A DNA stretch of 64,000 bases from Candidatus Versatilivorator sp. (GCA_965207735.1 OZ242296.1:4608001-4672000); one strand, 5' to 3'. Numbered from the stretch's first letter, positions 1-51,532 are shown. Program-made: numbers and translations. Notes: generated from the letters alone by a model not told the origin.

Positions 1-9312
<9,312 letters not shown>

Positions 9313-11365: not shown

Positions 11366-12945
11366 GAGTCTGCGCCGCAGGACGATTTCGGAAAGTTCAA
11401 GAGCGAGAGGCTACTGCGCAAGGCCGGTTCCAAGGAGTGCTTGGGAGCCACTTGGGCGTTGATAGAGTCTCAAGCGTCCTGTGGGCTCCCACAATGGGCG
11501 GTTGAGGACCTCCGTGGCCCTGGGTATTGGGTGGAAATCCCTTGCTTCAGGCCGCCATCAACGCACTCATCCTCTTGATGTTGAGGGCCAGACACACCAA
11601 GTCCCACTCCCCCTGCACTGATTGCAAGCCCCGCAGACTGAACCGTCGGAATCCCAGCCCCTCCTTGATCCACCCATGAGGGGCTTCGGCAATCCACTTC
11701 CTCCGCCGATACTCCACCTGACCGGCTAGGCTGGCCAGCTTCTTCCTCATACGACTCTTGGCCGGATGCTTCCTGGGATCGATCTCTACCGCCCGCTTCC
11801 CCTCGCGCCCCAGCGCAACATAACCGTCCACTCCTCTCTCTTCCAGGGCCTGCAAGTCCTCCTCATTGCAGTAGCCCGCATCCGCCAGCACCTGTTTCGG
11901 TATCTCCTGGAAGCTCTCCTCCACCTCCTCCAGCAACTCCATCATCTGCCCCTGATCGCTCGCCTGCGCCGTTACCTCGGTGGCCACAATGATCTGGTGC
12001 TCTCCGTCCACCGCCACCTGCGCGTTGTAGCATTGCTGGAACCCCTCGGTGGAAGTCTTCATGATCCGGCTTTCCGGATCGGTGAAATTACTCTGCGCCT
12101 TCTCCTCCGGTTCTCCGTAGGCCCGCTTGTAGGGCCGTCGTGCTTTCGGGTTGCGGTCCTGTCCCGGTTTGCGCCCCCGCTCCTCATCGGCCTCCCGCTG
12201 GGCCGCCTCCAGCCGCTGCTTGGCCGCCTCGATCGCCGCCAGCCGGTCCTCCCGCCGCCGCAACTCCTCGGGCAACTCATCCCCACGCCGGTCTTCCCCG
12301 TACCGCTCATCTTCCTCCCGGTCCTCCCGCCGCGCCTTCTTCAACAACTCATGGATCTCTGCCTTCAGTTGCCGCTCCCGCTCCTTCATCCGACCATAGC
12401 TCATCGCCTTGCGCCGGCTCGCGTTCGCCCGCACCTTCGTCCCGTCGATCCCCAATCGCCCCAACCCCACCATCCCCATCTCCCGCGCCAAGCTCACCAC
12501 CTGTACGAACAGCTGCTTGAAGTCCTTCAAATGCCGGCGGCGAAACTCGCACAACGTCCGATGCTGCGGAAAGTTCCCCGCCGCCAGCATCCGAAACGCC
12601 ACGTCTTCCTCCAGCTTCCTCGCGATCTTGCGCGACGAGAACACCCCTGTCGCATAGGCGTAAATCAACACCTTCACCATCATCCGCGGCTCGTAGGGCG
12701 AGTTGCGCCTCCCGTCCTCTTCATAGGGCCGGTAAAACGCTCTCAACTCCAGCCCATCCACCAACTCACTCACCTGATGGGCCAAGTGCCCTTCCGGTAC
12801 CCACTCCCCCAGGTCCGGCGGCAACATCAACAGTTGCTTCGGCTGATACGGGCGAAACCTTGTCCCCATCCACCACCTCCTATGATGTCTCTAAGCCCGT
12901 TATTGTATCATTCAGCCCTGCCCGGGTTTTCTGCGGCGCAGACTC
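11366..12945 (-). mobile_element. IS1182-family insertion sequence
   Basis: Perfect 15-bp TIRs GAGTCTGCGCCGCAG (11366-11380) / CTGCGGCGCAGACTC (12931-12945); CTAG duplicated at 11362-11365 and 12946-12949; encloses a transposase. Confidence 0.92.
11547..12869 (-). CDS. IS1182-family DDE transposase
   Basis: 440 aa; YxPRMMVKVLIYAY..SSRKI N-terminus, IDGTKVRANAS, TDPESRIMK, YNAQ, ADAGY, RRKWIAE..G.IK motifs. Confidence 0.93.
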   Translation of the reverse strand: MGTRFRPYQPKQLLMLPPDLGEWVPEGHLAHQVSELVDGLELRAFYRPYEEDGRRNSPYEPRMMVKVLIYAYATGVFSSRKIARKLEEDVAFRMLAAGNFPQHRTLCEFRRRHLKDFKQLFVQVVSLAREMGMVGLGRLGIDGTKVRANASRRKAMSYGRMKERERQLKAEIHELLKKARREDREEDERYGEDRRGDELPEELRRREDRLAAIEAAKQRLEAAQREADEERGRKPGQDRNPKARRPYKRAYGEPEEKAQSNFTDPESRIMKTSTEGFQQCYNAQVAVDGEHQIIVATEVTAQASDQGQMMELLEEVEESFQEIPKQVLADAGYCNEEDLQALEERGVDGYVALGREGKRAVEIDPRKHPAKSRMRKKLASLAGQVEYRRRKWIAEAPHGWIKEGLGFRRFSLRGLQSVQGEWDLVCLALNIKRMSALMAA

Positions 12946-12949
12946 CTAG

Positions 12950-13983
12950 CCCGCATTTCTCAGTGCGCCATGGAAAGGCGCCTTCTTCCAACGGGTGCGA
13001 AACCCGTCCAACAACTGTCGCTCCGGTTGGTAGCAGCCAGGGCGGATCATGGAGGTAACGATATGGTCTGAAGCCCTCTGGTGTCAAAGGGCCGCTTAAG
13101 GCGGTTCAGCGAGCATGCGGGCCGGAACGCGAGTGAACGTCGAGCAGGCCTCGAAACGGGCAATGCGGGGGCCGACCCACCTGAGAAATGGGGAAGGCCG
13201 AAGACGGAGGGGGAAGCGAGCGACGCGGGCACCCCTTTGGACCCGCCGGGGTAGTGGCGCTGGCACGCATGGAAGGGGAAGAAGGCAGCAACATGGGAAG
13301 CCCTGTGGGTGGTGAGGCACGCACCGAACCGGAAGCTCGCGAGAGTCAGTCTAGGCCGACAGGGTGGCGGAGAGGCCTGTAGTACCGGAGAAGCCGGGTA
13401 ATACCGGTGGAGGGAAGGGGCCTCAGGTGAGGAGCGGTGACCGAAGGGGGAAGGGTCCCGGGAGTGGCGAAAGCCTGAAACCCCGACCAAAAAAGGGCCG
13501 GAGACTCCGGAAGCATCACATGCAAAAGTGAAAGGGTCGTCGGAGGAGGACGGCGTCGTCAGGGCATCAACAGGCCTGGCGGCAACCCGGGAGCGGAAGT
13601 GGATGGAGTGGGGGACGGGTGCCAATCCCATAGGAGTCGTCCACGGATGCGAGCGGGGACCTGTGTGCGAGACGCATGATCCCACTGGAGAGCCGAGATG
13701 CGGGAAAACCGCACGTCCGGTTCGGAGAGCGGGGACTGGAAACGTGATAAGGGAGCCGGACTGAGGCACGAAGCGAAAGCGACGGAATAGCCACCGGACC
13801 CTATAGTCAACGCGCCAGTCCTCGACTCTACCCAGGGGGCATGTACGCGCTGAATGGAAAAAGACAAGCCAAGGCATGCCCAGCGCGGTCTGTTACCCGC
13901 AAGCCCTTCCCATGAAGCCAATCAAAGTACTGAAGATAAACTGCTTTTCGTCATGGCACCAGCGACCTGGTGAGAAATGCGGG
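12950..13983. mobile_element. MITE copy 1 (165 bp once the intron is removed), interrupted in one TIR by a group II intron
   Basis: TIR CCCGCATTTCTCA^CCAGG ... CCTGGTGAGAAATGCGGG; CTAG duplicated at 12946-12949 and 13984-13987; homologous to 42319-43431 in the opposite orientation. Confidence 0.85.
12963..13831 (+). ncRNA. ORF-less group II intron, copy 1 (869 nt)
   Basis: 5' GTGCG and 3' ...CTCGACTCTAC; domain V GAGCCG(A)GATGCGGGAAAACCGCACGTCCGGTTC; ribozyme core colinear with the RT-encoding intron at 15980-17974; no RT ORF. Confidence 0.92.
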
Positions 13984-15717
13984 CTAGCTGTTCACTCGAA
14001 CCGTAACGATGTCCAGTCCGTGATACTTCTGGTGGCGAACGGCAGAAGCGTAGTGCCGCAAAAGGCGGAAGGATAGCTCCCTTTCGTCGTAGATCTCGGT
14101 CTGTTCGTTCAGATAGGCAAGGTGGTCTTCCAGGTTTTCCTCGTCGAAAACCGCCAGGAACTCCAGTTCCACCGCCTCGGCCTCGGGACGCGCCACCAGG
14201 ATCAAGCGCGGCGTTTCCGCGTCCGGATATTCGTTCCCCGGCTGCAACAAGCTCGCCAGGGTTTCCTCACCCGCGGAACGCAGCCGCTCGGTCGCCGCCG
14301 CATCCCAACCCATCCTGACTGCAACCTTCCGGAGGAAGGCATCGATCCGGGGAAGGTCGGCGATATTCAACCGCACCTCCAGGCGACGGCGCCGCGGGCG
14401 GGTCAGTTCCAGGAAAGCGGTCAGCGCGATCGCAGTGGCGGTGCCGACGGTCATGCCGTTGCCGAGCAGCGTGCCCCAGGGATTGCCCAGCAGGTCTTCC
14501 AGAATGTTCTGATGTTGCATGCCGAGGCCTATCGAGAACGCCAAGCCCGCCACCATGGCCTTCTGCGGGTCGAGGCCCGACCGCACCAGGGTCTGGATTC
14601 CTTCCACGAAGAGCATCCCCAGCGCGACCAGCAGGAAGCCCCCCATGACCGGGCTGGGAATGGTGAGCAGCACGCTCGTTACCTTGGGAAAGAACGCCAG
14701 CACCACCAGGAGGGCTCCCATGACATAGGCAACGCTGCGTGCGGTGACCCCGGTGAGGTTGAATAGAGAGACCGTAAGCGACGAATAGGAGGTAGTGGGC
14801 GGTGTCCCGGCAAGCCCCGACAGCAGAATACCCACCCCGTTGGCATAGATTGAGCCTTGAATCAGGCGGAAGTCGGTCGCCCGCGGCCGGCGGCGCGACA
14901 CCTGTTGGACAACCACGGCGTCGCTGATGCTCTTGATGACTTGCACCAGGGTGACAATCAGGAACATCGGCAGCAGTGCCCAGAAGCCGGCGGACGGAAT
15001 CAGGTTCAGCCCCGGAAACCCGCTTTCGGGGACTCCGACCCAGGGAGCCGCGACCAGGCGCTCGAAGTCGTACAGGCCGAAGGGCGCCGCCGCCAGGCAG
15101 CCCGCCGCGATTCCGATCAGCAGCGACCAGGGTCGCCAGATTCCGGGAGCGCGCAGGATCAACATTGTGGCTACGACCAGCGTCACGGCCGCGACGCACG
15201 GACCTGCCGCCAGTGGTGCGCTTTCGGGGACCTCTTTCAGCCGATCGAAAGCGATGGGCAGGACCATGGCTGCGATCAGCATGAGGACCGTGCCGGAGAC
15301 GACCGGCGTGATGATGCGGCGCAGTTGCGGCAGCCACGAGGCCAGCGCCAGGTAAAAGAACGACGAAAGGACGATGAGGCTTGCCAGCATGGCTGGTCCG
15401 CCCTCCGCCAGGGCAAAGACCGAGAGAGCGATGAAGCTGGGCGTGACTCCCGTAATGAGCACGTGGCCGCCGCCCAGTCGCCCGACCTTGGCGGCCTGCA
15501 GCGCAGTGGCCACTCCAACGATGATCAGCGTGGCGAAGACGGCCCACGACAACTGGAGTTTGTCCTGGCCGGCGGCCAGCACGGTGATGGCCACGATCAG
15601 CACCGTCGGGGCCAGCACAATCATGATGCCCTGGATTGCGACCCCAACGGCCACAACCGGAGGACACCGCTCGTCCACTTCGTAGCGGATATTCTGGTTT
15701 GAGCGTGCTGATGGCAA
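13984..15717 (-). CDS. NCS2 (xanthine/uracil permease) family transporter with extra C-terminal soluble domain
   Basis: Many TM segments; YEVDERCP N-terminus, ITPVVSGTV, FFPKVTSVLLTIPSPVMGG; about 130-aa hydrophilic tail; TTG start preceded by GAGG. Confidence 0.85.
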   Translation of the reverse strand: MPSARSNQNIRYEVDERCPPVVAVGVAIQGIMIVLAPTVLIVAITVLAAGQDKLQLSWAVFATLIIVGVATALQAAKVGRLGGGHVLITGVTPSFIALSVFALAEGGPAMLASLIVLSSFFYLALASWLPQLRRIITPVVSGTVLMLIAAMVLPIAFDRLKEVPESAPLAAGPCVAAVTLVVATMLILRAPGIWRPWSLLIGIAAGCLAAAPFGLYDFERLVAAPWVGVPESGFPGLNLIPSAGFWALLPMFLIVTLVQVIKSISDAVVVQQVSRRRPRATDFRLIQGSIYANGVGILLSGLAGTPPTTSYSSLTVSLFNLTGVTARSVAYVMGALLVVLAFFPKVTSVLLTIPSPVMGGFLLVALGMLFVEGIQTLVRSGLDPQKAMVAGLAFSIGLGMQHQNILEDLLGNPWGTLLGNGMTVGTATAIALTAFLELTRPRRRRLEVRLNIADLPRIDAFLRKVAVRMGWDAAATERLRSAGEETLASLLQPGNEYPDAETPRLILVARPEAEAVELEFLAVFDEENLEDHLAYLNEQTEIYDERELSFRLLRHYASAVRHQKYHGLDIVTVRVNS

Positions 15718-15900
15718 TTGAGACCTCTTTGTGCCTCTTGGTGTGAGGATCCCAGGTTAAAGGCTTCCTGGGAACGCTGGCGTACCACCCGCGACGGGGC
15801 AGATCCATCGAGAAGGACTATCTATTCAACATGGATGCACAGGATAATCAGGACGGGAGGCTGCTGCAGGAGAGACTGACTCCGGCGATGATCCCATGCG

Positions 15901-15979
15901 GAAATCGACAAACCTTTCGTGACTTTGGTATCCCGTCGCGGTTAACCCCAACGCCTTAGTGGCCCTTCGCCGTTCTTCG
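15901..15979. repeat. Repeat family A copy, first part (split by the RT intron)
   Basis: Joining this to 17975-18028 rebuilds a sequence colinear with the copies at 18234, 21181, 32930 and 37795. Confidence 0.8.
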
Positions 15980-17974
15980 GTAGAGTCGAGGGGAGGCGCG
16001 CCGGCCTTAGATCGAGGGAGTCGCTGTTGCCGGCGGCTTTCGCCACTCGCCGGTGCCTCAATCTCGTTCCTCGCTGCGTTTCCTCGCCCCCGCTCGTCAA
16101 ACCGGACGTGCGGTTTTCCCGCATCCGGCTTTCAGTCAAGATCATGCCTTCGCCCTCGGAAGGCTCTGTGGCTTCGACCCCAGGCAAGTGAGTCCATAGG
16201 TTTTCCATAGTCTCTCGTCCGAGAAGCGCACACTCCCCCCGGTCCTCACCTTGTGCTTCCGACAGAGCCACTGACGCAGCCGCCCGCCCGCGTGGCGGTC
16301 GATCGCTCGGTAGGCCGGGCTCACCTGCCCCAGAACGAAGTAGTTCGCCCACCCGGTCATCGCCCGGTTCAGGTGTTCTACCATCTGTCCTCGAAGCAGC
16401 GTCCCGTTCCTCGGCGCCGTCCACTCGCTGATCTTGCGGCAGATGCTCTGGACGCTCGCCTGGCTGGGTCGTGTGCCGATGTAGGCTCCTTTCCCTTTGG
16501 GGCGATAGTTGCGTCCGATGCGATATCCCAGAAACCCCATCGGTTCCTCCGGACACCGCAAGCATCGGGTCTTCCGCTCGTTGACCGGTAGCTTCAGCTC
16601 CTCCATGATCCGCTTGACCGCCGTCAGCATCTCTGCCGCCGGTGCCCTGCCGAGTACACGGAAGTCATCCGCATAGTTGACGATCTCCGCACAGAAGCGC
16701 CGGGCATATCCCAGCACCTTCCAGCCCAAAACGAAGCGCCGCATGTAGAGATTGCTGAGCAACGGTGAGATCGGGGCTCCTTGCGGTGTCCCCTTCCGCT
16801 CCCGGCGCCCTCGGTTCCGGCGGCGTCTGCCACCCTTCCCGTCGTCCTCCTCCACCGGCATCTCCAGCCATGCCTTGATGAGCTTGAGCATCCTCCCGTC
16901 ACTCACGCGCCGGGCAATGCTTCGAATCAGCTCCGCATGCGGAATCTCGCCGAAGTAGTTGGACAGGTCGCCGTCAACCACCTCCTGGTAACCCCTTTGC
17001 AGGAGTTCATGCACGCGTTTGACCGCGTCGTTGGCACTCCGCCCCCGCCGATAGCCATATTGCTCCGGTTGCAGGTCCGCTTCGAAGATCGGCTCCAACA
17101 CCAGCAAAGCCGCCGTCTGCGCTACCCGGTCCCGTATGCAGGGTATGCCCAAAGGCCGGAACTTGCCGGGCTGTTTCTTCGGGATCAGCACCTGCCGCAC
17201 CGGCTTCGGTACGTAGGTTCCTTCCCTCAGGTCCCGCGCCAGTTCCCCCAGCCAGCCCTCCACCCCATACGCCTCGATGTCCTTGAAGCCCTCCCCGTCC
17301 ACCCCGGCCGACCCGCCGTTTCGGCGTACCTGTGCCCAGGCTTCCTTCAGAAAGTCCTCTCGCCACACCTTGTCCGACAGCGCATGAAACCGCCGCTTGG
17401 GGTCCTCCTTCGCTTTCGCATGTAGCATGGTCTGGAATTTCCGAACCCCCTCTGACCCTGTTAGACTCTTGTCAGTGGCCACGCCTTGCCTCCTTTCCAT
17501 GCTGCTCTCAACTCAGGGTCCCTTCCCTCCACCGGCGTTACCCGGCTTCTCCGGTACTACCGACCCATCCGCCACCCTGACGGCCCGGCCTGCCCCTCGC
17601 GGGGTCCCGGTTGATGTGTGCCGCATCTCCCCCAGGGCTTCCCGTGTTGCTGCCTTCTTCCCCTTCCATGCGTGCCAGCGTCACTACCCCGACGGAAGCG
17701 GATCGGTGCCCGCGTCGCTCTCTTCCCCATCCGCCAACGGCCTTCCCCTAAAGACAGGAGGGTCGGCTTCCGTATTGTCCGTTTCGAGGCCTGCTCGACG
17801 TTCACTCGCGTTCCGGCCCGCATGCTCGCTGAGCCGCCCTTGGCGGCCCTTGACCCCAGAGTGCTTCAGACCATTTCGTTACCTCCATGATCCGCCCTGG
17901 CTGCTACCAACCGGAGCGACAGTTGTTGGGCGGGGTTCGCACCCGCCAGAAGAAGGCGCCTTTCCACGGCGCAC
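15980..17974 (-). mobile_element. Full-length group II intron (1995 nt) encoding an RT/maturase
   Basis: Minus strand begins GTGCGCCGTGGAAAGG and ends CTCGACTCTAC; domain V AAGCCGGATGCGGGAAAACCGCACGTCCGGTTT; RT ORF lies in domain IV. Confidence 0.95.
16142..17500 (-). CDS. ltrA: Group II intron reverse transcriptase/maturase (no HNH endonuclease domain)
   Basis: GSAGVDG, RPLGIP..RDR, GTPQGAPISPLLSN, YADD, FLGY and domain X (LNRAMTGWANYF); 452 aa, ends without an HNH domain. Confidence 0.95.
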   Translation of the reverse strand: MERRQGVATDKSLTGSEGVRKFQTMLHAKAKEDPKRRFHALSDKVWREDFLKEAWAQVRRNGGSAGVDGEGFKDIEAYGVEGWLGELARDLREGTYVPKPVRQVLIPKKQPGKFRPLGIPCIRDRVAQTAALLVLEPIFEADLQPEQYGYRRGRSANDAVKRVHELLQRGYQEVVDGDLSNYFGEIPHAELIRSIARRVSDGRMLKLIKAWLEMPVEEDDGKGGRRRRNRGRRERKGTPQGAPISPLLSNLYMRRFVLGWKVLGYARRFCAEIVNYADDFRVLGRAPAAEMLTAVKRIMEELKLPVNERKTRCLRCPEEPMGFLGYRIGRNYRPKGKGAYIGTRPSQASVQSICRKISEWTAPRNGTLLRGQMVEHLNRAMTGWANYFVLGQVSPAYRAIDRHAGGRLRQWLCRKHKVRTGGSVRFSDERLWKTYGLTCLGSKPQSLPRAKA

Positions 17975-18028
17975 TGTCTCTTCGTGGATAACTCTTTTTC
18001 TTTTTTCGTTTGTTTCAGACAAGGCAAG
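17975..18028. repeat. Repeat family A copy, second part (5' exon of the RT intron)
   Basis: CTTCGTGGATAACTCTTTTTCTTT...GTTTCAGACAAGGCAAG, near-identical to 33003-33074. Confidence 0.8.
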
Positions 18029-18098: not shown

Positions 18099-18183
18099 TG
18101 TCGCCGCCTTCGCGGCTCGACGTGGAGCTACCGCTTTCCATGGGCTTACGCCCACGGCTACCTGCTGCCGCCGCTCCGCGGCT
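18099..18183. repeat. REP-like palindromic element
   Basis: GCCGCCTTCGCGGC and GCCGCTCCGCGGC hairpins around a GGGCTTACGCCC hairpin; single copy in the window. Confidence 0.45.
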
Positions 18184-29825: not shown

Positions 29826-29902
<77 letters not shown>

Positions 29903-42318: not shown

Positions 42319-43431
42319 CCCGCATTTCTCAGTGCGCCATGGAAAGGCGCCTTCTTCCAACGGGTGCGAAACCCGTCCAACAACTGTCGCTCCGGATGGT
42401 AGCAGCCAGGGCGGATCATGGAGGTAACGATATGGTCTGAAGCCCTCTGGTGTCAAAGGGCCGCTTAAGGCGGTTCAGCGAGCATGCGGGCCGGAACGCG
42501 AGTGAACGTCGAGCAGGCCTCGAAACGGGCAATGCGGGGGCCGACCCACCTGAGAAATGGGGAAGGCCGAAGACGGAGGGGGAAGCGAGCGACGCGGGCA
42601 CCCCTTTGGACCCGCCGGGGTAGTGGCGCTGGCACGCATGGAAGGGGAAGAAGGCAGCAACATGGGAAGCCCTGTGGGTGGTGAGGCACGCACCGAACCG
42701 GAAGCTCGCGAGAGTCAGTCTAGGCCGACAGGGTGGCGGAGAGGCCTGTAGTACCGGAGAAGCTGGGTAATACCGGTGGAGGGAAGGGGCCTCAGGTGAG
42801 GAGCGGTGACCGAAGGGGGAAGGGTCCCGGGAGTGGCGAAAGCCTGAAACCCCGACCAAAAAAAGGGCCGGAGACTCCGGAAGCATCACATGCAAAAGTG
42901 AAAGGGTCGTCGGAGGAGGACGGCGTCGTCAGGGCATCAACAGGCCTGGCGGCAACCCGGGAGCGGAAGTGGATGGAGTGGGGGACGGGTGCCAATCCCA
43001 TAGGAGTCGTCCACGGATGCGAGCGGGGACCTGTGTGCGAGACGCATGATCCCACTGGAGAGCCGAGATGCGGGAAAACCGCACGTCCGGTTCGGAGAGC
43101 GGGGACTGGAAACGTGATAAGGGAGCCGGACTGAGGCCCGAAGCGAAAGCGACGGAATAGCCACCGGACCCTATAGTCAACGCGCCAGTCCTCGACTCTA
43201 CCCAGGCCGCTGGTGCCATGACGATAAGTAGTTTATCTTCAGTACTGTGATTGGCTCCAGGGGAAGGGCTTGCGGGTAACAGACGGCGCTGGGCATGCCT
43301 TGGCTTGTCTTTTTCCCTTCAGCGCGCACATGCTCCCTCGCGCGTAGTGACCGCTACGCTCTTCGGTCGCGAGCACGCGCTGAAGGGAAAAATTCTGCGC
43401 CATGTTCATGCCCCCTGGTGAGAAATGCGGG
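42319..43431. mobile_element. MITE copy 2 (243 bp once the intron is removed), interrupted in its other TIR by a group II intron
   Basis: Same 18-bp TIR as copy 1; TTAA duplicated at 42315-42318 and 43432-43435; internal 17-bp inverted repeat (43310-43326 / 43376-43392). Confidence 0.85.
42332..43201 (+). ncRNA. ORF-less group II intron, copy 2 (870 nt)
   Basis: GTGCG...CTCTAC; by eye differs from copy 1 by 3 substitutions and one extra A. Confidence 0.92.
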
Positions 43432-45459
43432 TTAATTGGCCTTCGCACGCTGCGCGTAGTCCCGGTACTTGCCGAAGAGGGTCACGAACCTGGTGGAGAT
43501 GGAGTCGAAATTTCTCGGCTGCACCGGGGACCCCGGGCCTGCCTCAGAACCAATCAGGCCGAGATTTCTGTTTCCTATGAAGCTGGTTCTCACCGTCTCC
43601 TGCATTCTGGACGGAAGGTAGTAGGATCGCTTGCCGATTCCAATCTTCTTGTAGTCGATGGTGAGCTCGTAGGCCTTGATGGGTGACTCCTTGGGGATCT
43701 CGGCGTCCTTGGCGCGAAACCGCACCACCTGGAAGTCCTTGAGGTCGATCCAACATTGTCCCTCATACCCGTAGGTGACGGATTTCTTGTCGCTAACGCG
43801 GAGAGTTCGTTTGGAGTGCTCGGACGCAACACTAAAGCGGACGCGCGCCACCTCGCGGCCGCTGATCTTCTCCAGGCGTTCCAGTTCCAGGGTGGCTTGG
43901 GATTCCGGGGAAAAGAGCTCGGCGATGGCGGGACCGAACTCCCCTGCCGTCTGGGGAGGAGCGCTGCTGGCGCCCACGTTCTTGTAATGCTTCTGCTTGG
44001 AGTGATAGGAGAGTTGGTGAGCCAGGAAATCCTCCTGCGTCCATCCCCCCCGACCGATCTGGCGGTAGCGGCGTGTGGTCTGGTTGCAGACGAATTCGGG
44101 CAGTGTGCGCTCATAGTCAAAGGTCTTGGCGCGAACGGTCTTGAGGAACAGCGGCCAGTTCTTGCTGGTGGGCTTGGTGCCCGGCTTCATCAGGTCTGAC
44201 GCTTTGCTGGCGACGCGCCGGGGGCGTTTCTTGCGGGCGACCTTGACCACTCGGGCCGAGGCCACGAATTCCACGACCTGCTTCTTGCACAGCAACTTGT
44301 CCGGGAGTTGGCTTGCCTGATCACAGGTGGCCCCCGCCACTTCGGTCGGCCGCAGCAGGGGGGCGTCCGGGTTGCCGGTGGCCAAGACCCGTCCCTCATC
44401 TCCCACCACCGCCCCGGTCAGGTTGGCTCCCCGCAGGTCGGTCTCCTTGAGGTCGCTCCCCGACAAAGAGGCCCCCGACAAGTCGGCGTTCTGCAGATCG
44501 GCTCCTGTCAGCAGCGCCTCGTCCAGGATGGCTTTGCTCAGGTTTGCCTGGGCCAGGGAGGCGTCGCTCAGGTCGGCCTGGGTCAGGTCGGCCTGGCTGA
44601 GATCGGCCTTCTCCAGCCGGGCCCCAGTCAGATTGGCTTGAGTCAGCAGGCTCTGGGAGAATTTGGCTTCCTGAAGATTGGCGCCGATGAAGTTGCCGCG
44701 GTACACCTCCGCCTTGGTGAAGTCGGCCTGACCGAGATCGGCCTGCATGAAGTCCACCTTGTCGGAAAAGCCGTTTCGAAAGTTGAGCCCGGTGAGCACT
44801 GCCTGGCTGAGGTCGGAGGAAGAGACCTCCACTCCCTCCCAGTTCCGCCCGCTCAGGTCCACCCCGCTGAGATTGACCCCGAACAGGATCATCCGGTTGA
44901 AGAGCGCCTGGTCGAACTCGACGCCCCGCAGGTCGGTGCTACGGATGACGGCCTCACTCAGGTTGGCTCGATTGAGCTTGGCTCCCTGCAGTTGGGCTCT
45001 CGATAGGTGGACGGCCGTCAGATCGGCGCCGCTCAGGTCGGCTTCCCGCAGGTCGGTTCGGGTGAGGGTGGCCTCGATAAGCCGGGCTCCAACCAGCGTT
45101 GCTCCCTGGAGATTGACGTCGGTCAGGGATGCCCCCGAGAGATTGGCGCCGGAGAGGTTTCTGCCCTGCAGGTCGGCCTTGAACAGATCTGCCTTGCGCA
45201 GGTCGCCGCACTCTCCCCGAAAATCGGTATTGAGTCCCTGAACCCCAGCGTCGTCGGTGCATCCCTGTTCGCCCCGGTACCTGAAACGCGGGGTTTCGCC
45301 GGTGGGTGCCTGTTGGACCGCCTGGCCTTTGGGCGGGACCGCGCCGGATCCGGGGTCTTGGGGGGAGCCGGCCACTAAGGGCCAGAGAATCAGCGCCGGC
45401 AGCGCCGCTCCCAGCCGCAGCCGGAGAGGCCTGATGGAGGTGTGGACACTCATATTCAC
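43432..45459 (-). CDS. Exported pentapeptide-repeat protein with unrelated C-terminal domain
   Basis: Signal peptide; long A(D/N)LxX tract; C-terminal DYERTLPEFVCNQTTRR...GEFG...WID beta-rich domain. Confidence 0.85.
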   Translation of the reverse strand: MNMSVHTSIRPLRLRLGAALPALILWPLVAGSPQDPGSGAVPPKGQAVQQAPTGETPRFRYRGEQGCTDDAGVQGLNTDFRGECGDLRKADLFKADLQGRNLSGANLSGASLTDVNLQGATLVGARLIEATLTRTDLREADLSGADLTAVHLSRAQLQGAKLNRANLSEAVIRSTDLRGVEFDQALFNRMILFGVNLSGVDLSGRNWEGVEVSSSDLSQAVLTGLNFRNGFSDKVDFMQADLGQADFTKAEVYRGNFIGANLQEAKFSQSLLTQANLTGARLEKADLSQADLTQADLSDASLAQANLSKAILDEALLTGADLQNADLSGASLSGSDLKETDLRGANLTGAVVGDEGRVLATGNPDAPLLRPTEVAGATCDQASQLPDKLLCKKQVVEFVASARVVKVARKKRPRRVASKASDLMKPGTKPTSKNWPLFLKTVRAKTFDYERTLPEFVCNQTTRRYRQIGRGGWTQEDFLAHQLSYHSKQKHYKNVGASSAPPQTAGEFGPAIAELFSPESQATLELERLEKISGREVARVRFSVASEHSKRTLRVSDKKSVTYGYEGQCWIDLKDFQVVRFRAKDAEIPKESPIKAYELTIDYKKIGIGKRSYYLPSRMQETVRTSFIGNRNLGLIGSEAGPGSPVQPRNFDSISTRFVTLFGKYRDYAQRAKAN

Positions 45460-51457: not shown

Positions 51458-51532
<75 letters not shown>

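Follow-up and report, generated by a model that had tools for sequence, protein, structure and literature searches.

Three guides and a mosaic ORF-less lineage among class E/F-like group II introns of a Candidatus Versatilivorator genome

The window analyzed here, a 64,000-nucleotide stretch of DNA from Candidatus Versatilivorator sp. (GCA_965207735.1 OZ242296.1:4608001-4672000), carries an ORF-less group II intron (intron A) and an RT-encoding one (intron B), and introns of both types recur in the genome. From the sequence patterns described below, we think it quite probable that these are endonuclease-less IIB-type (class E/F-like) introns with guides matching three repeated targets, which would have spread by retrohoming at replication forks, mobilization in trans and replacement of domain I. 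The match of three guides to repeated targets follows a strategy of spreading that is known from other introns: EBS divergence, trans-mobilized ORF-less introns and targeting of IS ends have already been published for Thermosynechococcus and RmInt2, and the available text of PMC2882425 described natural EBS divergence within one genome in 2010. The less familiar part is a protein-less form whose guide domains appear to have been copied from protein-coding siblings, likely via recombination.

Introns of the window and their repeated targets

An earlier sequence-only reading had taken both elements for group II introns, and this is confirmed. Rfam models RF02003 and RF00029 match group II intron domains in introns A and B and in a further copy at 42332; the 5' GUGYG, 3' AY, domain V and domain I structure of group II introns are present; and the RT of intron B scores above the TIGR04416 cut-off. 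Intron B has the YADD RT/maturase in domain IV that marks a group II retroelement, and intron A is without RT. In the intron B protein, Pfam gives RVT_1 and GIIM only, with no endonuclease domain found. The features are as follows.

12950..12962, plus strand: 5' exon of intron A, the first 13 nt of an IS1380-derived MITE terminal inverted repeat, comprising IBS2 and IBS1
12963..13831, plus strand: intron A, ORF-less group II intron with guide A (869 nt, no ORF; Rfam match)
13157..13161, plus strand: EBS2 of intron A, CGGGC in a bulge, pairing with exon -14 to -10 (covariation and fold)
13165..13169, plus strand: 5' strand of a domain I internal helix, supposed to be EBS2 in the sequence-only reading (partner 13242-13246; compensatory changes)
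13182..13188, plus strand: EBS1 of intron A, 6 nt with a seventh pair possible (covariation)
13254..13254, plus strand: EBS3 of intron A, a G pairing with the C at +1
13832..13983, plus strand: remainder of the 165-bp MITE hosting intron A, with the other inverted repeat at its end
15980..17974, minus strand: intron B, RT-encoding group II intron with guide B (1995 nt; Rfam match; 13 copies, 9 identical)
16142..17500, minus strand: RT/maturase ORF of intron B (452 aa, YADD; TIGR04416 above cut-off)
17684..17684, minus strand: EBS3 of intron B, a G (covariation)
17751..17756, minus strand: EBS1 of intron B, UGUCUU (covariation)
17777..17781, minus strand: EBS2 bulge of intron B, CGGAC, with only 3 bp to the usual exon
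17975..17991, minus strand: 5' exon of intron B, one unit of the dispersed intergenic CCACGAAG repeat
42332..43201, plus strand: second ORF-less guide-A copy, inside a 243-bp MITE (Rfam match)

The MITE hosting intron A has CTAG at both flanks (12946-12949 and 13984-13987). The closest relatives of intron B are 85-98% identical and occur in Terriglobia, Acidobacteria or Ca. Versatilivorator/Versatilivoraceae. Other elements of the window include an Rfam Acido-Lenti-1 match adjoining intron B (18138-18183), a 675-aa pentapeptide-repeat protein adjoining the second ORF-less copy (43432-45459), two Rfam tRNA genes (29826-29899 and 51458-51529) and an ORF of at least 3102 aa (4-9312) with internal repeats ~7.4-7.7 kb apart.

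BLAST with both introns located 45 intron 5' ends in the 5.26-Mb genome, which carry three guides. Guide A (EBS1 UGAGAA) is found in 29 copies, 28 ORF-less and one RT-encoding (at 5004992); guide B (UGUCUU) in 13 copies, all RT-encoding; and guide C (UGUAAU) in three, namely an RT-encoding copy (4589468), an ORF-less copy (1135573) and a 117-nt deletion derivative (4261108). RT-encoding copies total 15. Judged by sequence identity (22 of the 28 ORF-less guide-A copies and 9 of the 13 guide-B copies are identical), the copies are young and the family has recently expanded.

The guide-A target is the terminal inverted repeat of a 1698-bp IS element and of its 243-bp MITE. Long BLAST hits number 21 for the IS element and 35 for the MITE, and the target 13-mer occurs in 157 exact copies against 0.14 expected from base composition. 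The IS element has terminal inverted repeats, 4-bp flanks and a PF13701 (DDE_Tnp_1_4) transposase (E 8e-150), a domain that we take as a marker of the IS1380 family. The guide-B target is a dispersed intergenic repeat with 265 pattern hits in 209 loci, 9 of them occupied under that pattern, and the commonest guide-B exon (6/13 copies) makes three G-U pairs in EBS1. For guide C the target is a palindrome with 15 sites, 3 of them occupied. On these counts, the sequence-only reading was right that different EBS1 guides match different high-copy repeats.

Several individual sites deserve mention. One guide-B copy (1747494-1749506) has a broken RT frame. The 117-nt mini-intron (locus L232, 4260992-4261108) sits at a C target and consists of 84 nt of a B/C-type 5' end and the last 37 nt of the ORF-less type, joined across a 4-nt microhomology. 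At 572757, the insertion point of a MITE end holds no more than the first 7 bases of the intron, probably a scar left by intron deletion. A second IS (DUF772 and DDE transposase; window 11547-12945) abuts the MITE of intron A, and guide-A sites directly beside that end of it are occupied in 7 of 9 cases, compared with 22 of 160 elsewhere (Fisher p 6e-5). Its outward promoter or its target preference could explain this excess.

Covariation of the guide loops with the exons

Relatives for covariation were drawn from related genomes (part of their copies), 79 genome loci and 80 metagenome loci. From 229 loci, 175 intron 5' ends were parsed, to which the 44 full-length copies of this genome were added; three duplicates, two mis-called starts and rows with another intron's end upstream were left out. 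The resulting set has 208 rows, 156 of them distinct, in 57 guide classes. Relatedness was reduced by repeating the test on 34 clusters below 90% identity, with two misaligned rows dropped, among which kin are still partly dependent.

Across the 57 guide classes, the six strongest Watson-Crick signals between intron and exon join 13182-13187 to exon -1 to -6, and all four pair types occur at every one of these positions. The next strongest join 13159, 13161 and 13160 to -12, -14 and -13, and 13188 to -7. In the 34 clusters, EBS1 covaries with the exon at z 13.7, and the bulge from 13157 covaries with exon -10 to -16 at z 7.0, a value reached in 0/1000 shuffles. EBS3 at 13254, an added compensatory pair that the sequence-only reading missed, is Watson-Crick with +1 in 37 of the 39 classes having a 3' exon (23 G-C, 8 U-A and 6 A-U) and G-U in the remaining 2. 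By covariation, EBS1, EBS2 and EBS3 pair with both exons in the manner of a IIB ribozyme.

The motifs named earlier all lie where they were said to lie: the loop TGAGAAAT at 13182-13189 and TGCGGG at 13164-13169, proposed as EBS1 and EBS2 of intron A; their supposed exon partners ATTTCTCA and CCCGCA before the GTGCG at 12963; and, for intron B, TGTCTT (minus strand, 17756-17751), which pairs with exon GAGACA with one G-U. The role of the loop as a guide holds for 13182-13187, but its proposed length of eight nucleotides does not. The last T, 13189, closes the Id3 stem with 13179 (A-U, U-A, G-C, C-G and G-U pairs, 32/34 clusters), and because this base belongs to the stem, EBS1 spans 6-7 nt and an eight-nucleotide EBS1 was rejected.

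EBS1 follows the exons and TGCGGG does not, so that the EBS/IBS comparison bears out one proposed guide and not the other. Measured on rows identical to those used for the bulge, pairing of the TGCGGG site to exons is at chance level in the 34 clusters (z 0.1, reached by 494/1000 shuffles); in the 57 guide classes it gives z 1.4 (p 0.085). The site is near-invariant, does not follow exon changes, and at 13165-13169 pairs internally with 13242-13246 in 32/34 clusters. TGCGGG was therefore rejected as EBS2, the true EBS2 lying ~7 nt away at 13157-13161, and its match to the guide-A exon is a coincidence, because both G-rich stretches face the same CCCG. The sequence-only reading had itself held that a motif outside the EBS2 loop would count against it, and both fold and covariation place TGCGGG there.

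A few guide classes pair poorly with their own exon (e.g. L073, L155, L125). TA is common at exon -16/-15 (T in 17/34 and A in 20/34 clusters) and is likely read by the protein, by analogy with T-15 of RmInt1 in the available text of PMC4615759. Distant relatives in other hosts (L122-L129, L155, L190, L202, L224, L225) share the IS-end target exactly or nearly so, and most of them carry guide UGAGAA or CGAGAA.

Spread of the copies and the mosaic ORF-less form

Of the guide-A copies, 4 and 3 lie in the two IS ends, 12 and 7 in the two MITE ends and 3 elsewhere. Their multiplication might have been passive, the intron being carried along by the IS1380 element and its MITE without homing; in keeping with this, 26 of the 29 are in ends of these elements, the flanking 4-mers match in most cases, and the 22 identical ORF-less copies would also be accommodated. 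We nevertheless regard passive multiplication as very improbable. Identical ORF-less introns stand in four different element ends and three other sites, and several independent insertions are therefore needed; the insertion splits the inverted repeat after 13 of its ~17 nt; and the strand bias of the insertions compares occupied with empty ends of the same elements, each of which offers one repeat per orientation. Cargo movement may have added some guide-A copies.

Sites following the local GC skew account for 24 of 29 occupied guide-A sites and 50 of 140 empty ones (Fisher p 3e-6), and the same comparison with a global origin gives 23/29 and 54/140. The local skew was used besides the global one because the global GC-skew curve is irregular, and fork direction is therefore an estimate. 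For all guides together, 33, 35 and 36 of the 45 copies follow the local skew at three skew-window sizes, and 37 of 45 the global one; the bias is not significant for guide B alone (7/9 vs 114/256, p 0.08) or guide C alone (3/3 vs 7/12, p 0.5). Priming of an endonuclease-less intron at replication forks would give the guide-A pattern, as is reported for the En-minus RmInt2 in the available text of PMC4615759. Related RT-encoding introns share the genome with the ORF-less form (15 copies, one of guide A), and together with published cases their presence makes it likely that the ORF-less form is moved in trans by a sibling RT.

The two introns of the window are 87.8% identical in domain I, 79.6% at nt 336-470 and 64.4% in the last 165 nt. 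The earlier description of domain I as largely near-identical is thus overstated, and because the 3' end is so much less similar than domain I, the pair is not one scaffold with new loops. That one scaffold changed only its EBS1 and EBS2 loops, with TGCGGG as EBS2, and so switched between two repeats has some points in its favor: the motifs exist, TGCGGG pairs 6/6 with the guide-A exon, and among RT-encoding copies EBS1 does vary (UGUCUU, UGUGUU, UGUAAU, UGUUAA and UGAAUU) on a closely similar domain I. However, TGCGGG-type sites are near-invariant, internally paired and independent of the exon, and introns A and B differ at 12% of positions in domain I and at 36% in the 3' end, so that a loop switch between these two introns, whose 3' halves are distantly related, is extremely unlikely. 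Cleaner natural guide pairs are RT-B with RT-C (94% identical overall) and ORF-less A with ORF-less C (same 3' half). To call such a pair a natural programmable targetron, as was proposed for introns A and B, restates an established property of IIB introns.

Trees were built from 28 selected introns (25 of this group and 3 outgroups), with the EBS loops removed for domain I. In the domain I tree, introns sharing a guide fall together: ten guide-A copies, whether or not they have an ORF, at 100/100, ORF-less C with RT-C at 99/97, and ORF-less B' of genome G004 with RT-B' at 100/97. In the tree of the 3' part, all ten ORF-less copies form one clade at 100/100. AU tests were run after the trees had been seen, with the groups already fixed by length and guide. 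They reject a single ORF-less clade in domain I (p 2e-5) and, after omission of one row whose 3' end was undetected, a single guide-A clade in the 3' part (p 1e-38). The ORF-less 3' half is found with four guides, A, B, B' and C, and the domain I that accompanies it is 95.2%, 98.2%, 99.4% and 98.2% identical, respectively, to that of the RT-encoding intron of the same guide. At its 3' end, the ORF-less intron with guide B (L264) matches ORF-less A at 97.6% identity and RT-B at 63.8%. The position at which informative sites switch from one parent to the other varies among hybrids (320-323, 385-387, 398-411 and 444-462); the breakpoint of the ORF-less A of this genome is noisy, with 41:13 informative sites to its left. 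As a sequence pattern, the mosaic ORF-less lineage is well supported, and the simplest reading suggests that domain I has been captured repeatedly, through recombination within the conserved stretch near domains II-III.

It could be argued that the hybrids arose as chimeras during assembly, or that they are gene-conversion products that are inert and have never moved. The genomes were assembled from metagenomes and the repeats are multi-copy, a single full-length copy represents each of ORF-less C and L264, and gene conversion between group II intron copies has been reported (available text of PMC3522654). Four observations make this very improbable: ORF-less C falls short of full identity to its two nearest parents (98.2% and 93.6%); genome G004 has three ORF-less guide-B' copies at three sites (L007, L021, L057); the 117-nt deletion derivative, with its ORF-less 3' end, lies at a second C target; and hybrids recur in four genomes with differing breakpoints.

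The ORF-less 3' end is ~82% identical to that of an RT-encoding intron of another host (L310) and 64-66% identical to those of the resident RT introns. No RT remnant was found in ORF-less domain IV by tblastn, whose hits lie in domain I only, at E above 0.1. On these two grounds, an origin of the ORF-less form by ORF deletion from a resident RT intron was rejected. In 17 genomes of other loci, a search with the ORF-less domain IV matched mainly DV-DVI, with short, weak domain IV matches in two; within the genus, 6/14 genomes gave matches. Genome G045 (L293-L306) has many ORF-less relatives of 902-908 nt with three guides (61 matches, 13 loci parsed), and their targets are varied and apparently non-repeat. 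An ORF-less guide-A copy in genome G005 (L286) has a ~50-nt insertion in the EBS1 stem. Head-to-tail tandem introns are seen in L066 (genome G011) and L145, one directly at the other's end, and resemble the head-to-tail copies of RmInt2 (PMC4615759, available text).

Under the favored explanation by fork retrohoming, trans mobilization and domain I replacement, point changes in EBS1 would gradually bring RT-encoding copies to new repeat families. The older ORF-less 3' half (domains IV-VI, ~64% identical to the local RT introns at its 3' end) would recombine with RT-encoding introns between nt 320 and 460. Since a crossover in this interval leaves domain I joined to its own 5' exon, EBS1 and EBS2 stay matched, and the hybrid could splice at once. 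After splicing, it would home to the donor's targets with an RT acting in trans, presumably that of one of the 15 RT-encoding copies. Crossover, gene conversion and RT template switching are all compatible with the data on the hybrids. We lean somewhat toward a more specific form of this explanation, in which the ORF-less lineage would be a parasite of group II introns, having its own catalytic 3' half, using RT in trans and repeatedly capturing the entire targeting domain of whatever RT-encoding intron shares its genome; domain I would then act as a swappable guide cassette, with no mismatched EBS states to pass through during retargeting.

Swapping domain I in its entirety between the protein-less chassis and its protein-coding siblings would be a second route to new targets. 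If the hybrids are mobile, domain I and domains IV-VI are compatible even when their lineages differ by ~35% at the 3' end, a result of interest for modular targetron design and for the question of how introns escape saturation of their targets. The copies and relatives also allow EBS1, EBS2 and EBS3 of class E/F-like introns to be mapped by covariation, and the difference between the EBS2 of guide A (5 bp) and guide B (3 bp) makes the homing role of EBS2 testable.

Among RNA runs that contain the stretch, those with a readable label are sponge metagenomes. Of 24 runs listed, 4 sponge metatranscriptomes have contigs that cover the ORF-less intron, and in these related-strain contigs its summed depth relative to the adjacent MITE is clearly higher in two runs, modestly higher in one and not higher in the fourth. 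No joint linking the ORF-less intron 3' end to its 5' end was present among 15 of 17 joints. Because the contigs come from related strains, with no silent control and no 3'-5' joint, this coverage is not counted as evidence.

Class assignment and comparison with known introns

The introns appear class E/F-like by structural marks read from sequence and folds. The criteria in the available text of PMC3753933 (Nagy et al. 2013) are an alpha-prime located terminally in a stem-loop and a DV loop of 5 nt; here alpha-prime GAGCGAC lies in a terminal loop and is complementary to a 5' loop, with pairing invariant in the copies, the 5-nt DV loop is GAAAA, and the 452-aa protein has no endonuclease domain. 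The YADD motif argues against g2, which has FADD (Toro and Martinez-Abarca 2013, PMC3552965, available text). Likeness to group IIE/IIF, as far as the accessible portions of these two papers go, comprises the terminal-loop alpha-prime, the 5-nt DV loop, a long DVI, an En-minus YADD RT and a covarying EBS2; the multi-guide expansion in one genome seen here is not described in those portions. In class E/F, EBS2 is dispensable for in vitro splicing, and a role in homing is only presumed (PMC3753933, available text). EBS2 layout and the rarity of bacterial ORF-less introns are covered in the available text of PMC8643678 and PMC4424553; that of PMC2504315, PMC3522654 and PMC13190283 deals only with gene conversion between copies and endonuclease-module recruitment. 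In the literature on chimeric or recombinant guides and on sponge or Acidobacteria introns, we found no description of domain I capture, which is weak evidence of novelty, as the sources included little subscription literature.

RmInt2 of Sinorhizobium meliloti GR4 (PMC4615759, available text) resembles the introns described here in being En-minus, in targeting both inverted repeats of an IS (ISRm17 there), in its relaxed EBS2, in its lagging-template bias and in its head-to-tail copies, and its RNA and IEP cross-complement with those of RmInt1. It differs in being a class D intron with 7 RT-encoding copies, whereas here the occupied elements are IS1380-family and MITE and 28/29 occupants are ORF-less.

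The TeI3/TeI4 introns of Thermosynechococcus elongatus (Mohr, Ghanem and Lambowitz 2010, PMC2882425, available text) likewise have many copies per genome in EBS-defined families (six there), some of them in IS elements, and ORF-less copies moved in trans by sibling IEPs, as is proposed here. Those introns are CL/IIB1 with an endonuclease, whereas the introns here are without one. Their ORF-less copies have one deletion origin and keep ORF remnants, and each EBS family forms its own clade; the ORF-less copies described here are without ORF remnant, have a distinct 3' half and hold guide domains in common with the RT-encoding introns.
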